The notes below the pieces were generated by a model, which saw only the letters and a list, made by a program, of their open reading frames with translations, was not told where the DNA came from and ran no database searches. Positions 60,599 to 63,729 of a stretch of DNA of 64,000 nucleotides are shown in pieces (position 1 is the first letter of the stretch; every line of letters begins with the position of its first letter). The position numbers and the translations under genes are program-made. Source of the DNA: Escherichia phage BME3; the sequence record PP239276.1; one strand, given 5' to 3'.

Positions 60599-60695
60599 TG
60601 GCAGCAAGGTGAGGAATCGAACCCCTTGATCTATGGTTTGGAGCCATATTGAGTACCATACTCTTTTAAATCTACCCGGCTATGAGTTCCTTGAA
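60599..60695 (-). tRNA. tRNA-like, possible Trp(CCA); 5' half aberrant, 5' end uncertain
   Basis: CCA, acceptor 3' strand, T-loop AATCGAA and canonical anticodon arm with loop CUCCAAA; no matching 5' acceptor strand at expected distance. Confidence 0.3.
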
Positions 60696-60739
60696 GTGTC
60701 AATGTAACTTAATCATTACACCAGAAGGGAGGTATTTAT

Positions 60740-60818
60740 TGGAGGCGGGAGTAGGATTTGAACCTACGATCTCCAGCATATGAAACTGGCGAGGACGACC
60801 AGACTCCTCTATCCCGCG
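60740..60818 (-). tRNA. tRNA-Met/Ile2 (CAU), CCA encoded
   Basis: T-arm GTAGG-ATTTGAA-CCTAC, anticodon loop UUCAUAU, D arm with 11 nt loop, 1:72 mismatch. Confidence 0.6.
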
Positions 60819-60833
60819 CAATCTGTAGTAATT

Positions 60834-60909
60834 TGGTTGATAGTAAGAGAATCGAACTCTTCTCGCAATGCCTTATGAAAGCACTCGAAACGCCAGCTTC
60901 ACACTATCA
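60834..60909 (-). tRNA. tRNA, probable CAU anticodon, atypical anticodon-arm register
   Basis: perfect 7 bp acceptor and T-arm AAGAG-AATCGAA-CTCTT, CCA encoded; anticodon arm only folds with 6 nt variable loop. Confidence 0.45.
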
Positions 60910-60997
60910 ATGGCTAACCCTTTATAACCCGTCTTGGCGTGGTATCCTTAACAGGACGGTAGATATCCGTTGCAAACCCTATGATATCTCTTAGATA

Positions 60998-61082
60998 TGG
61001 TAGCTAAGGTGAGACTCGAACTCACAATCCCTTGGGGCAATACGTTCTAAGCGTATCGTGTATACCATTCCACCACTTAGCC
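60998..61082 (-). tRNA. tRNA-Leu (UAG), type II
   Basis: CCA, acceptor, T-arm GTGAG-ACTCGAA-CTCAC, 14 nt variable arm, anticodon loop CUUAGAA. Confidence 0.7.
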
Positions 61083-61158
61083 ATAAAAATACACCACTGT
61101 AAGAAGCCTCAATGTGCTATTGACAGTTAACCAAGTCTACTCCTTGGATGGTGATATT

Positions 61159-61233
61159 TGGTGCAGAGAGATGGTAACGATCCATCCTTTCTACCTTTTC
61201 AGGGTAGCACTAATCCGTCTCAGCTATCTCTGC
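61159..61233 (-). tRNA. tRNA-Phe (GAA)
   Basis: CCA, perfect acceptor, anticodon stem CTACC/GGTAG with loop CUGAAAA; non-canonical T-loop. Confidence 0.55.
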
Positions 61234-61238
61234 AAATT

Positions 61239-61314
61239 TGGTCAGTGCGGCAGGACTCGAACCTGCGACCTGAAGCGTCCAAGGCTCCCACGCTACCAAC
61301 TGCGCTACGCACTG
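61239..61314 (-). tRNA. tRNA-Pro (UGG)
   Basis: CCA, perfect acceptor, T-arm GCAGG-ACTCGAA-CCTGC, anticodon loop CUUGGAC. Confidence 0.7.
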
Positions 61315-61321
61315 TAAATCT

Positions 61322-61396
61322 TGGCTGGAGATCTAGGAATCGAACCTAGTCATCACGACTTCAAAGGCCGTTGCCTTCCCACTAGGCTAATCTCCA
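61322..61396 (-). tRNA. tRNA-Gln (UUG)
   Basis: CCA, perfect acceptor, T-arm CTAGG-AATCGAA-CCTAG, anticodon loop CUUUGAA. Confidence 0.7.
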
Positions 61397-61495
61397 ATAA
61401 AACTAAAAATCACTTAAAAAGAACCGCTAGAGTTTGAAGGAGAAAACCATGAGCGAAAAGAGAAATTTTCTCTAGCGATTCCATTTAAATAATCT

Positions 61496-61570
61496 TGGAG
61501 CGAGTAACAGGACTTGAACCTGCACCTGGAGGGTGGAAACCTCATATGCTACCATTAACACTATACCCGC
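61496..61570 (-). tRNA. tRNA-Gly (UCC)
   Basis: CCA, perfect acceptor, T-loop ACTTGAA, anticodon loop UUUCCAC. Confidence 0.6.
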
Positions 61571-61582
61571 TTAACAATATTA

Positions 61583-61611
61583 CTCTAACATATTATTAGC
61601 CCCTTTGTCAA
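61583..61611 (-). promoter_or_regulatory. minus-strand promoter upstream of tRNA block (TTGACAA - N16 - TTAGAG)
   Basis: reverse complement reads TTGACAAAGGGGCTAATAATATGTTAGAG; predicted start a few nt upstream of tRNA 5' end. Confidence 0.5.
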
Positions 61612-61625
61612 GAGGCTTTTGATAT

Positions 61626-61955
61626 TTATTTTAAAATAGTAGATGAACCACGTCTGTTTAGATATGCAATAGTAAAGTCCAAATCACCTATTTCTTCAGG
61701 TTCCCACTGACCTTCTAAGCCATAACAAGAACAATGATATGCGTGTACTTCATAAAACAAAGATGTTTTCATATCATAAAAATAAACGTGAGATTCACCT
61801 TCATAATATGCACAATCATAAGTGGCAGAAAGAATTACAATGTTATCCTTATCTAACTCTACTTCATAATATCTTTCAACATCTTCAATATGATCAAAAC
61901 CATCGAAAACATTGATATTAAAATATTTCTCTAACTCTTTTTCTGTCACATACAC
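61626..61955 (-). CDS. hypothetical protein embedded in tRNA region
   Basis: 109 aa ORF between tRNA genes. Confidence 0.5.
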   Translation of the reverse strand: MYVTEKELEKYFNINVFDGFDHIEDVERYYEVELDKDNIVILSATYDCAYYEGESHVYFYDMKTSLFYEVHAYHCSCYGLEGQWEPEEIGDLDFTIAYLNRRGSSTILK

Positions 61956-61972
61956 TCCTTTAGAGTTAAAAT

Positions 61973-62047
61973 TGGTGCTCCCACAAGGACTCGAACCCTG
62001 ATAAGTTGCTTACAAGGCAACCGTAATAGCCGTTATACGATAGGAGC
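61973..62047 (-). tRNA. tRNA-Thr (UGU)
   Basis: CCA, acceptor with G-U pairs, T-loop ACTCGAA, anticodon stem GTTGC/GCAAC loop CUUGUAA. Confidence 0.65.
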
Positions 62048-62053
62048 AATACT

Positions 62054-62130
62054 TGGACTCGACAGGATTCGATACCTGCAATTCCAGAAGCCTCTTGGCG
62101 ACTGGGGGTTTACCTTAACTCTACAAGTCC
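62054..62130 (-). tRNA. tRNA-like, atypical (8-nt T-loop, unresolved anticodon arm)
   Basis: 7 bp acceptor pairing 62055-62061 with 62124-62130; T-arm folds only with 8-nt loop ATTCGATA. Confidence 0.3.
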
Positions 62131-62137
62131 ATAATTC

Positions 62138-62222
62138 TGGCGATGGATCAAGGATTTGAACCTTGCTAGAACTTTCGTTCACGGATTAACAGTCCGTCGC
62201 CCAACCACTAGGCCAATCCATC
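62138..62222 (-). tRNA. type II tRNA whose anticodon reads GUU
   Basis: CCA, perfect acceptor, T-arm CAAGG-ATTTGAA-CCTTG, variable-arm hairpin GAAC-TTTC-GTTC, anticodon stem ACGGA/TCCGT loop CUGUUAA. Confidence 0.5.
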
Positions 62223-62229
62223 TTTAATT

Positions 62230-62316
62230 TGGTGCAGGTAGTTGGACTCGAACCAACGAAGCCCAGAAGGGCAAGAGATTTACAGTCTCCAGCAATTGCC
62301 GCTATGCGATACCTAC
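62230..62316 (-). tRNA. tRNA-Tyr (GUA), type II
   Basis: CCA, perfect acceptor, T-arm GTTGG-ACTCGAA-CCAAC, 16 nt variable arm, anticodon loop CUGUAAA. Confidence 0.7.
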
Positions 62317-62321
62317 GTGTT

Positions 62322-62397
62322 TGGTACATCGTGAAGGATTCGAACCTTCGACCTTGGAGTTAAAAGCCCCTTGCTCTACCAACTAAGCTAACGATGT
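62322..62397 (-). tRNA. tRNA-Lys (UUU)
   Basis: CCA, perfect acceptor, T-arm GAAGG-ATTCGAA-CCTTC, anticodon loop CUUUUAA. Confidence 0.65.
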
Positions 62398-62522
62398 ATA
62401 AATTATCTTTAAAATAGCCAGTGTTTGCGGCACTTGACTATGGGATATCGGTAAGATGGTGGGGCCATCTGCCGAAAGTTTACTCTGTTAAAGTAAGATG
62501 ACAAGCTACATTAAAGATAACT

Positions 62523-62608
62523 TGGCGGTAGATGTAGGACTTGAACCTACACGCCGTTTCCGACGACAGTTTAGCAAACTGTTGTGGCTACCATTTCACC
62601 AATCTACC
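62523..62608 (-). tRNA. tRNA-Ser (GCU), type II
   Basis: CCA, perfect acceptor, T-arm GTAGG-ACTTGAA-CCTAC, long variable arm, anticodon stem ACAGT/ACTGT loop UUGCUAA. Confidence 0.7.
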
Positions 62609-62616
62609 GTTCTTAA

Positions 62617-62769
62617 TTATTCAAAACAACCGGAATCTTTTTGTTCTGCTTTTACCATACGAATATTTTTACCATCTTCAGATTGTTGAAGATTAGAATA
62701 CTCATAAATAACTTTATTATCTACAATCTTAACTCCGGTAACAACCTGTCCAATAGTTTTATAATTCAT
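62617..62769 (-). CDS. hypothetical small protein
   Basis: internal ATG at 62769 with AGGAGC RBS; track ORF to 62817 would overlap the next tRNA. Confidence 0.35.
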   Translation of the reverse strand: MNYKTIGQVVTGVKIVDNKVIYEYSNLQQSEDGKNIRMVKAEQKDSGCFE

Positions 62770-62787
62770 AAAGCTCCTAGTTGAATT

Positions 62788-62877
62788 TGGAGGAAGATAA
62801 TGGAGTCGAACCATCACCGTATCGCTACAATGGGCCAGGGTTCAAACCTGGTTGCGCACCGCTGCGCCCTACCTTCC
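62788..62877 (-). tRNA. tRNA-Ser (UGA), type II
   Basis: CCA, acceptor, T-loop AGTCGAA, 19 nt variable arm, anticodon stem CCAGG/CCTGG loop UUUGAAC. Confidence 0.65.
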
Positions 62878-62893
62878 CGTTATCATACTTTAA

Positions 62894-62922
62894 ATCTAAC
62901 ATAAAACTATGTTGCTTGTCAA
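62894..62922 (-). promoter_or_regulatory. minus-strand promoter (TTGACAA - 17 nt - TTAGAT)
   Basis: reverse complement reads TTGACAAGCAACATAGTTTTATGTTAGAT, about 15 nt upstream of tRNA 5' end. Confidence 0.5.
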
Positions 62923-62940
62923 GTAGTTTTTAAAACTTTT

Positions 62941-63022
62941 TGGCCGGGGTGACAGGATTCGAACCTGCATACTCCAATTACTCGGTTAACGCCTGATTAG
63001 AAGTCAGGTGAGATACACCCCG
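62941..63022 (-). tRNA. tRNA-like with Arg(UCU) anticodon arm, apparently lacking a normal D arm
   Basis: CCA, perfect GC-rich 7 bp acceptor, T-arm ACAGG-ATTCGAA-CCTGC, anticodon stem CCTGA/TCAGG loop CUUCUAA; only 7 nt between anticodon stem and 5' acceptor strand. Confidence 0.4.
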
Positions 63023-63092
63023 TTTTCACAGTAACTATAACAAAAAACTAAGTAAATGTCAAGATATTTTTTACTAAATTGCTATTTAAATT

Positions 63093-63165
63093 GAAGCCTA
63101 GTTATGGAATCGAACCATATTTCGTATTTAGTTAGACAAAGCGATCTAACATATTTTTCAGGCTT
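63093..63165 (-). tRNA. tRNA-like, atypical (no encoded CCA; internal hairpin has 8-nt loop)
   Basis: perfect T-arm TATGG-AATCGAA-CCATA; 7 bp acceptor possible only with 2-nt offset. Confidence 0.35.
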
Positions 63166-63202
63166 TGATGGCCTCGGAATTACCAAATACCCTACCAGGC
63201 GT

Positions 63203-63288
63203 TGGTGCAAGTGGAGGGATTCGAACCCTCAATCATTTAAGCGTTGCGTTTTAAGCACAATGTGTATCACCAATTCCACCACACTTGC
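63203..63288 (-). tRNA. tRNA-Leu (UAA), type II
   Basis: CCA, perfect acceptor, T-arm GAGGG-ATTCGAA-CCCTC, 13 nt variable arm, anticodon loop CUUAAAA. Confidence 0.7.
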
Positions 63289-63319
63289 ATATAGGAGATG
63301 CATAGCACCTCCTTTTAAA

Positions 63320-63395
63320 TGGTGGTTCCCCAGGGTTACAATCCCTGCCCTCGACACTTATGAGGTGTGCGCTCTCGTCAGTGAGCTATGGAACC
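63320..63395 (-). tRNA. tRNA-Met/Ile2 (CAU)
   Basis: CCA, 6 bp acceptor, D stem GCTC/GAGC, anticodon loop CUCAUAA, T-stem CAGGG/CCCTG with non-canonical loop. Confidence 0.55.
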
Positions 63396-63402
63396 TTGAA
63401 TA

Positions 63403-63669
63403 TTAAGCATACTGGGTCATTTCACCAGCTTCGCGTTTCTCCAGAAGAACTGTAATCAAAGCAATAGCTGCTTCTTCTTCGTGAGGAAGCCCCATTTCAT
63501 CCAGAAGAGCAAGGAAGTCAATTACCAAACTTTCTGTTTTAAGGCTCACGCTACCATTTTCGTTTTCAGTAAGAACTGATTCAGGTTCAAAAATAAAGAT
63601 TGCTCCACCTTTATTATCAATCAATACGTGCTTCTCAATCAATTCTTTACCATAAGTACGTTCTGTCAT
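63403..63669 (-). CDS. hypothetical acidic protein
   Basis: 88 aa ORF, promoter-like motif upstream. Confidence 0.5.
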   Translation of the reverse strand: MTERTYGKELIEKHVLIDNKGGAIFIFEPESVLTENENGSVSLKTESLVIDFLALLDEMGLPHEEEAAIALITVLLEKREAGEMTQYA

Positions 63670-63699: not shown

Positions 63700-63729
63700 A
63701 TCTTAGCAAATAACTAGCTATGTTGTCAA
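63700..63729 (-). promoter_or_regulatory. minus-strand promoter (TTGACAA - 18 nt - TAAGAT)
   Basis: reverse complement reads TTGACAACATAGCTAGTTATTTGCTAAGAT. Confidence 0.45.

Follow-up and report, generated by a model that had tools for sequence, protein, structure and literature searches.

The allo-tRNAs and SelC* tRNACys are irregular transfer RNAs (tRNAs) that resemble selenocysteine tRNA (tRNA-Sec), with a long variable arm and a long D stem capped by a tetraloop. In the part of the work cited here, allo-tRNA anticodons are highly diverse and include UAU, SelC* tRNACys carries U73 with GCA or UCA, some irregular tRNAs come from phage tRNA clusters, and several are apparently not used in translation (Mukai et al., 2017; PMC5389517). 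Phage tRNAs also counter tRNA-targeting defences (PMC10264068; PMC11555353; PMC12409363), and sensitivity to the anticodon nuclease Ec2ApeA has been reported for Vequintavirus and Justusliebigvirus (bioRxiv 10.64898/2026.01.26.701840). Here, we describe an RNA gene in a 64,000-nucleotide (nt) stretch of Escherichia phage BME3 (PP239276.1), which is referred to as the window and to which all coordinates apply unless stated otherwise. The window resembles phi92-like Escherichia phages of the genus Justusliebigvirus (Stephanstirmvirinae; 97–99% identity). Its minus strand from 63200 to 63092 is an irregular tRNA-shaped RNA gene that belongs to a conserved family and lies inside a tRNA operon. Among RNAs already described, the tRNA-shaped RNA comes nearest to the tRNASec-like irregular tRNAs (allo-tRNA and SelC*), and it is a variant of irregular, tRNASec-like class II tRNAs. 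A literature search found no description of the tRNA-shaped RNA family, and the Justusliebigvirus genome description lists only the same 16 canonical tRNAs (PMC12210895).

A conserved tRNA-shaped fold

A covariance model (R1) was built from 15 sequences, and 21 distinct members, the number reached after viral and metagenome contigs had been added, were realigned to it. Fitting an alignment to a structure favours that structure; RNAalifold, however, recovered the same five-helix cloverleaf on its own. The cloverleaf, together with a hairpin in the variable region and one tertiary pair, accounts for 98.4% of pair cells being paired across the 21 members, as against 77.6% in shuffles and 32–47% in slid controls. 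Fourteen of the 24 pairs have changed on both sides. The covariation score was 0.60 versus 0.20 for shuffles, none of 500 of which reached the observed value. Covarying pairs number three in the acceptor stem, three in the D stem, two in the anticodon-position stem, three in the variable hairpin, and two in the T stem. A second model (R2), built only from members outside Justusliebigvirus, matched the window at 63092–63200 on the minus strand over its full length (model positions 1–109) with 81.6 bits (expectation value 1.4e-18), which upholds the tRNA-like nature that the initial annotation had assigned to the locus. The next-best matches of R2 in the window were the phage's own tRNA-Leu, tRNA-Ser, and tRNA-Tyr, at 21–24 bits. 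Because of the covariation, and because the R2 score is far above those of the phage's own long-armed tRNAs, we regard the feature as real and conserved, and as a distinct family within the tRNA world. Minimum free energy folds of single sequences did not recover the cloverleaf (z about −2); comparative analysis alone does so.

The RNA measures 106 nt to the discriminator and 109 nt with the UCA that stands in place of CCA; model R2, RNAalifold, and the below-threshold Rfam tRNA-Sec alignment support this unit. All of its parts are read from the minus strand. The 5′ strand of the acceptor stem, GCCUGGU (63194–63200), pairs with the 3′ strand, ACUAGGC (63102–63096); the seven pairs form in 100% of cells and three of them covary, the window copy having one G·U. 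When introns are allowed, ARAGORN chooses the same helix (63200–63194 with 63102–63096). The 3′ strand adjoins the T stem without a gap. In the T arm, UAUGG-UUCGAUU-CCAUA (63103–63119), the stem is paired in 100% of cells with two covarying pairs, and the T loop is canonical; direct reading thus bears out the arm TATGG-AATCGAA-CCATA that had been reported on the plus strand. Covariation of the first T-stem pair (G-C or U-A) fixes the branch as 7/5. An 8/4 arrangement of acceptor and T stems was excluded by this covariation and by A8, which never pairs with the column in question.

The D arm, GGUA-UUUGGUAA-UUCC (63176–63191), has four stem pairs, of which three covary in the family, and a U·U mismatch in Justusliebigvirus. 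It can also be drawn as a stem of 6 base pairs (bp) with a UGGU tetraloop; RNAalifold adds U14-A21 and U15-A20, which are both invariant and so give no covariation signal. The GG of the D loop takes part in the elbow pair G19:C56 (columns 18/91), which is G:C in 13 members, U:A in eight, and never unpaired. The eight U:A members, of Mydovirus and LNA4 type, combine the D loop UUUGUCAA with the T loop UUAGAUU and form one clade.

The arm at the anticodon position (63160–63174) consists of the stem AGGC/GCCU and the loop CAUCAAA (63170–63164). Its stem is paired in 100% of cells, and two of its four pairs covary, one as A-U/G-C and another as U-A/C-G/A-U. Two invariant residues, G 63175 and G 63159, flank the arm and face each other, giving a G·G pair followed by 4 bp. 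The variable region that follows is 40 nt long in the window, 39–40 nt in most genera, and 31 nt in Vequintavirus and Avunavirus. Its A-rich 5′ linker, AAAAAUAU (63151–63158), is kept across genera as GAAAAUA or GAAAAAUA; its 3′ linker, UAAAUACGAAA (63120–63130), has an invariant AAUAC core and reads (U/G)AAUACAUA in most genera. The hairpin enclosed by the linkers, GUUAGA-UCGCUUUG-UCUAAC (63131–63150), has a counterpart at this position in every lineage, each with a sequence of its own, the stems being GUC/GAC, GCC/GGC, CCUCC/GGAGG, CCCCC/GGGGG, GCUCUC/GAGAGU, or GACGA/UCGUU. All three outer pairs have changed on both sides. The hairpin loop ranges from 5 to 14 nt across genera, and even among near-identical Justusliebigvirus relatives it may be UCGCUUUG, CCACUUUG, CCGCUUUG, or CCGUUUUG.

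Frameshift-suppressor tRNAs with 8-nt anticodon loops are known, sufD being an example, and the initial annotation took the hairpin at 63131–63150 for an anticodon arm of this kind, in a tRNA that would suppress +1 frameshifts. The hairpin exists as described, with 6 bp and an 8-nt loop (or 7 bp and a 6-nt loop if a U·G closes), but a loop of this length is all that it has in common with sufD-type suppressors. Since it is located between the anticodon-position arm and the T arm in a fold supported by covariation, it is the stem of the variable region, and the anticodon-position loop is 7 nt long. The suppressor reading fails because the 8-nt loop varies among near-identical relatives within the genus; the loop also has no U33, and position 37 is not a purine. 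This reading requires an acceptor helix of AAGCCUG (63165–63159) with UAGGCUU (63100–63094) at a 2-nt offset from the T stem, which is a real complementarity in phage BME3 that is not conserved: 57% of its cells are paired in the 21 members, the same as in shuffles, with no compensatory change. Nor would this reading leave a D arm. The interval 63093–63165 omits the 5′ third of the RNA, in which the acceptor stem and the anticodon-position stem have their 5′ strands and the D arm lies. One separate point in favour is that, in Mydovirus and Seunavirus relatives, opening the closing C-G pair would give an 8-nt loop, CCAUCCAG, at the true anticodon position. At the level of structure, the frameshift-suppressor reading of the hairpin is refuted, and we give it almost no credence. 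Both outcomes that the initial annotation named as refuting were observed, as neither ARAGORN at default settings nor the Rfam tRNA model reports a tRNA at the locus and the tRNA-Sec alignment shows a 7-nt loop at the anticodon position. The earlier observation was thus partly right and its interpretation largely wrong.

The absence of an encoded CCA, also reported initially, was confirmed. Comparison with relatives places the discriminator U (63095) before UCA (together 63092–63095). Members from Hena1, UTK0002, Mydovirus, and Seunavirus end in U-CCA, and those from Justusliebigvirus in U-UCA or, at locus L035, in U-CCC.

Several features are shared with canonical elongator tRNAs (RF00005), namely the 7-bp acceptor stem on a 5-bp T stem, the T-loop consensus, and the G19:C56 elbow between the D and T loops. 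In place of the canonical anticodon arm, whose stem has 5 bp and whose 7-nt loop bears U33 and a purine at 37, the window has a G·G pair, 4 bp, and A33. The window copy reaches neither the RF00005 gathering score of 29 bits nor a call by a tRNA finder: ARAGORN without the intron option gave no call at the locus at default or relaxed threshold, and when the region 62880–63420 was searched against all Rfam families, RF00005 had no match there at E up to 10. With class II tRNAs (Ser, Leu, and Tyr) the family has in common the 7/5 branch, the canonical T loop, the GG of the D loop, and an extra stem-loop before the T arm. It differs in its variable region of 31–40 nt, where conserved A-rich linkers, single-stranded, flank the hairpin at either end; in having A8 and U14 rather than U8 and A14; and in an anticodon stem of 4–5 bp after the G·G pair, with no U33 in most members.

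The best Rfam match is tRNA-Sec (RF01852), at 28.3 bits for window 63096–63200 (minus strand) and 39 bits for Hena1 and UTK0002, against a gathering score of 47. This sole Rfam alignment of the window copy places a 7-nt loop at the anticodon position. The likeness lies in the long variable arm, in a D arm that can be drawn with 6 bp and a YGGY tetraloop, and in a loop like CUUCAAA with UCA. In contrast to the 8/5 (13-bp) branch of tRNA-Sec, the 7/5 (12-bp) branch of the family is supported by covariation; the window has U73 where tRNA-Sec has G73, and sister genera have other loop triplets. Allo-tRNAs and SelC* tRNAs combine a long variable arm with a tRNASec-like D arm and an anticodon uncoupled from the body; the family has a long variable region and loop triplets that vary between genera, and its D arm may take either of the two forms given above. 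In the cited part of PMC5389517, those RNAs are defined by an 8/4 or 9/3 branch, as opposed to 7/5 here, their variable arm lacks long linkers, and none is reported from enterobacterial myophages. Origin from a particular tRNA is not indicated by comparison with the window tRNAs, to which similarity is flat (0.70–0.77, with tRNA-Gly marginally first).

Distribution and variation of the family

A sensitive BLAST search with the locus returned 33 Justusliebigvirus-type records (including one Serratia phage) at 92–97% identity, as well as Erwinia phage Hena1 (Vequintavirinae) and Salmonella phage UTK0002 (Schitoviridae) at about 71–73%. With the UTK0002 copy as query, 222 phage records were matched; at least 80% of the query was covered in 57 records, and only the T-arm side in many others. 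The genera matched include Vequintavirus, Avunavirus, Seunavirus, Mydovirus, and Henunavirus. Vequintavirinae, Justusliebigvirus, and one phage of the Schitoviridae thus carry the family in their tRNA clusters. A metagenome scan added at least five loci with family members (L389, L417, L442, L450, and L473), two of which are new sequence variants. The phage copy had no match in 5,426 complete E. coli genomes. A pattern scan of genome contigs found no members, but its pattern had Justusliebigvirus-specific spacing and says little on cellular genomes. Two loose patterns run on viral contigs returned mostly unrelated DNA.

GenBank labels for the family are inconsistent: tRNA-sup(tca), tRNA-Lys, tRNA-OTHER, tRNA-???(atcc), tRNA-TERM, hypothetical protein, or none. 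The Hena1 homologue is annotated as a 108-nt tRNA-sup(tca), and that of pEp_SNUABM_01 is also labelled tRNA-sup(tca). Recognition of a single family, to which about 220 phage records showed a match of some degree, would repair these annotations and would remove spurious small open reading frames (ORFs).

The loop at the anticodon position ranges from 5 to 8 nt across genera. In the CAUCAAA loop of the window, A takes the place of U33 and the triplet U34-C35-A36 is UCA; a 13-nt segment, GGCCAUCAAAGCC, recurs unchanged in Justusliebigvirus, Henunavirus, and Ithacavirus. In members from Mydovirus and Seunavirus, a 5-bp stem carries a 6-nt loop, CNNCCA, which appears as CAUCCA, CUUCCA, CCGCCA, CCUCCA, and CAGCCA in otherwise near-identical RNAs (L389, L473, L188, L180, and L358). 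These two hypervariable positions could reflect diversifying selection or a mutational hotspot. The loop is UUUUUAA in Vequintavirus and UUUAUAA in Avunavirus, and two members from these genera pass RF00005, slur12 at 35.5 bits and 19-1-2 at 33.1 bits. Members of the UCA and NCC types have U as discriminator; UUU is accompanied by A, and UAU by C or U. Kissing between CAUCAAA and the variable-arm loop (CAAA/UUUG) was considered; it is possible in Justusliebigvirus and, by inspection, unsupported in Hena1, Ro1, and slur12. A target of the loop in trans was also sought; apart from the locus itself, the window does not contain the complement, CTTTGATGG.

Phage EC_OE_11 (L489), when aligned to window 63102–63200, has a clean 99-nt deletion of the element between AAC repeats, with both neighbouring tRNAs intact. 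Four of 37 records match only the 3′ flank, namely EC_OE_11 and three more (92CQ, KKE7M, and JohannJBalmer). Because of the clean deletion and the records with only this flank, we conclude that the element is dispensable. Where it is present, identity over the 141-nt region is 92–97%, compared with 97–99% for the flanks.

Possible decoding, decay, or mimicry

The UCA triplet raises the possibility of a working, weak opal (UGA) suppressor or recoding tRNA, in which CAUCAAA would present U34-C35-A36. U73 and C35 fit the identity sets of cysteinyl-tRNA synthetase (CysRS) or glycyl-tRNA synthetase (GlyRS), and the long variable arm would be tolerated, as in the tRNASec-like SelC* tRNACys(UCA); a functional SelC* tRNACys with U73 and UCA is described in the cited part of PMC5389517. 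The tRNA-sup(tca) labels of the Hena1 and pEp_SNUABM_01 homologues agree with such a role, as does the tRNA-Sec model, which aligns the loop as an anticodon loop in both Hena1 and the window. So do the identity of the loop in three lineages, the U73-CCA encoded outside Justusliebigvirus, the covariation of discriminator and loop triplet, and the canonical-looking Vequintavirus members. Set against these points are A33, at a position where U33 is near-universal, and a stem of just 4 bp plus G·G. Stop codon usage at first sight favours suppression, as TGA ends only 4 of the 54 window genes of at least 110 amino acids (TAA 47, TAG 3). However, this skew is probably explained by the base composition of the window (38% GC), as judged from a comparison with Hena1 only: Hena1, with the same UCA-type loop, ends 13 of 52 genes with TGA (25%) at 49% GC and so does not avoid this codon. 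The coding strands of the window hold no same-frame ORF pairs split by TGA. Sister genera have 5-, 6-, or 8-nt loops at the same position, CCA has been lost in Justusliebigvirus, and some isolates have deleted the element. On balance, we consider a UGA-reading tRNA rather unlikely.

Less likely again is that the Justusliebigvirus copy is a decaying pseudogene of a family still functional in other genera. This genus alone combines the D-stem U·U mismatch, which accounts for all four unpaired cells of that pair, with a change of CCA to UCA or CCC. The acceptor-stem G·U, the lack of an RF00005 match in the window, the clean deletion in some isolates, and the somewhat greater variability of the 141-nt region relative to its flanks point the same way. 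Yet the five helices are all still intact, and the Justusliebigvirus substitutions fall in the variable-arm loop or the 3′ trailer or preserve pairing (A-U to G·U). A score of 81.6 bits against a model from other genera and retention in most isolates also argue against decay.

Two further readings, a short protein-coding gene and a tRNA-Leu(CAA) with a 24-nt intron, are highly improbable. A 34-amino-acid ORF with a TTG start (63186–63083) is open only in the window and in Hena1, and records of phage cardinal and others list it as a hypothetical protein. Stops interrupt the frame in UTK0002, PVP-SE1, LNA4, P8734, VIK251, Ro1, slur12, and 19-1-2, and substitutions track RNA pairing rather than codons. 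Since the frame is not conserved across the family, coding sequences annotated on the RNA gene are probably spurious; in phage Mydo, two small ones with ribosome-binding sites are annotated over the equivalent RNA gene. As for the intron, ARAGORN with the intron option and a relaxed threshold gives tRNA-Leu(caa), intron (38,24), but excision would take out the 3′ strand of a covarying stem. To our knowledge, bacteria lack the machinery to splice a 24-nt tRNA intron.

The best explanation overall, which we hold with moderate confidence, is that of a conserved irregular tRNA-shaped RNA acting as an accessory mimic. Stated more narrowly, as a dispensable accessory tRNA mimic that would be non-decoding or barely decoding, the proposal is tentative, being plausible rather than probable. 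We favour a mimic over a decoder because of A33, the short stem, the lack of an RF00005 match, the 5–8-nt loops of sister genera, the two loop positions that differ between near-identical Mydovirus and Seunavirus members, normal TGA use in Hena1, the lack of TGA-split genes, and dispensability. The conserved top half would let tRNA-binding factors engage the RNA. The divergent loop at the anticodon position, which would evolve under pressure from phage–host conflict over tRNAs, suggests a role of the RNA in that conflict; to tRNA-targeting nucleases it may be a decoy or competitor, or it may be a body resistant to them.

A number of observations weigh against mimicry. N73-CCA is encoded in four genera and fits a charged, decoding tRNA. 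The discriminator shifts with the loop triplet (U73 with UCA or NCC, A73 with UUU), and the Vequintavirus and Avunavirus members that exceed the Rfam tRNA threshold show U33 and A37 in loops of canonical form. Three diverged lineages share an identical CAUCAAA, so the loop sequence itself is under selection. The lost CCA, the D-stem mismatch, and the deletion variants in Justusliebigvirus could be decay, and the change of the elbow from G19:C56 to U:A may be a single inherited event.

Phage tRNAs that counter defences (PMC10264068; PMC11555353; PMC12409363) are, like the family, found in clusters of lytic phages, accessory, and altered in the anticodon stem-loop. They are otherwise canonical decoders with a demonstrated phenotype. 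In the Vequintavirus members of the family, the triplet UUU goes together with A73, and tRNA-Lys(UUU) is among the known targets of nucleases. A bolder form of the mimicry proposal, which we consider doubtful, has two versions. The non-decoding RNA might engage a host tRNA-binding immune effector or processing enzyme, with contact made by the acceptor/T/D top half and the long structured variable region. Candidate effectors would be anticodon nucleases such as ApeA, PrrC, and PARIS, or nucleases that cut the tRNA 3′ tail, and the rapid change of the anticodon-position loop would then be the trace of an arms race with the effector. Alternatively, the RNA might be charged independently of its anticodon for targeted recoding, for which Mydovirus and Seunavirus could use the 8-nt loop at the true anticodon position.

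If the RNA is indeed a mimic in conflict with nucleases, it would represent a new RNA-based counter-defence in therapy phages and in the BASEL reference set, and the natural deletion variants are ready-made mutants for this reading. The family is also a natural example of an L-shaped RNA in which a 40-nt variable region, exchanged core nucleotides (A8/U14), and non-canonical anticodon-position loops are tolerated.

Transcription context and other unusual tRNAs

With default settings, ARAGORN reported 16 minus-strand tRNA genes, which lie within 60518–63395. Rfam supported 13 of these at the gathering score and added one at 62944–63022; this odd tRNA and all 16 ARAGORN tRNAs have an encoded CCA. 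The 5′ end of the tRNA-shaped RNA (63200) lies 2 nt past the CCA of tRNA-Leu(UAA) (63203–63288). A consensus scan found a candidate promoter upstream, TTGACA-18-TAAGAT (63700–63729, minus strand; 10 of 12 matches), and a sigma-70-like sequence just downstream of the tRNA-shaped RNA, TTGACA-17-TATAGT (63034–63062, minus strand; 11 of 12 matches to the consensus, and a consensus match only). The downstream site probably serves the next tRNA gene and would mark the end of the transcription unit of the tRNA-shaped RNA. A unit starting near 63729 would comprise an 88-amino-acid ORF, tRNA-Met, tRNA-Leu(UAA), and the tRNA-shaped RNA, whose co-transcription in last position is suggested by the consensus promoters and the spacing. 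No terminator-like site was found. Pfam searches of the neighbouring proteins gave no RNA-related matches; terminase and portal genes lie downstream.

Maturation can be envisaged along familiar lines. After transcription as the last gene of its small unit, behind the ORF, tRNA-Met, and tRNA-Leu, ribonuclease P would cleave 2 nt past the CCA of the upstream tRNA and give the 5′ end. The 3′ end would be trimmed, and a host nucleotidyltransferase would add or repair CCA, a step needed because Justusliebigvirus encodes U-UCA. T4 tRNAs without an encoded CCA are completed by the host nucleotidyltransferase.

The cluster holds other unusual elements. The odd tRNA at 62944–63022 (minus strand, CCA to 62941) is the one with the TTGACA-17-TATAGT promoter of its own. 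Its acceptor stem has 7 bp, only 7 nt take the place of the D arm, the anticodon arm is normal and carries UCU, and the 23-nt variable region includes a D-loop-like AAUUGG. It scores 38.6 bits with the Rfam tRNA model, receives no ARAGORN call, and is labelled tRNA-Undet or tRNA-OTHER in relatives. Another uncalled tRNA-like element, at 60602–60680 (minus strand) between tRNA-Ile and tRNA-Met, ends in G-CCA. Its anticodon arm is UAUGG-CUCCAAA-CCAUA (CCA, Trp-like), its T arm is GGGG-UUCGAUU-CCUC, and additional bases lie between the acceptor stem and the D arm; it scores 22.9 bits with RF00005, below threshold, and 14.7 bits with model R2. The three ARAGORN tRNAs under the Rfam gathering score are tRNA-Met (60834–60909), tRNA-Ser(UGA) (62788–62877), and tRNA-Met (63320–63395), all on the minus strand; the last has an unusual T loop, GGG-AUUGUAA-CCC. 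Long variable arms also occur on normally short class I tRNAs, such as the 85-nt tRNA-Asn(GUU) of the window (62138–62222, minus strand), the 87-nt tRNA-Trp(CCA) of Hena1 (L488:3167–3253), and a 91-nt tRNA-Lys(UUU) on an unrelated viral contig (L353:649–739, minus strand). Such additional arms may be a more general feature of phage tRNAs.

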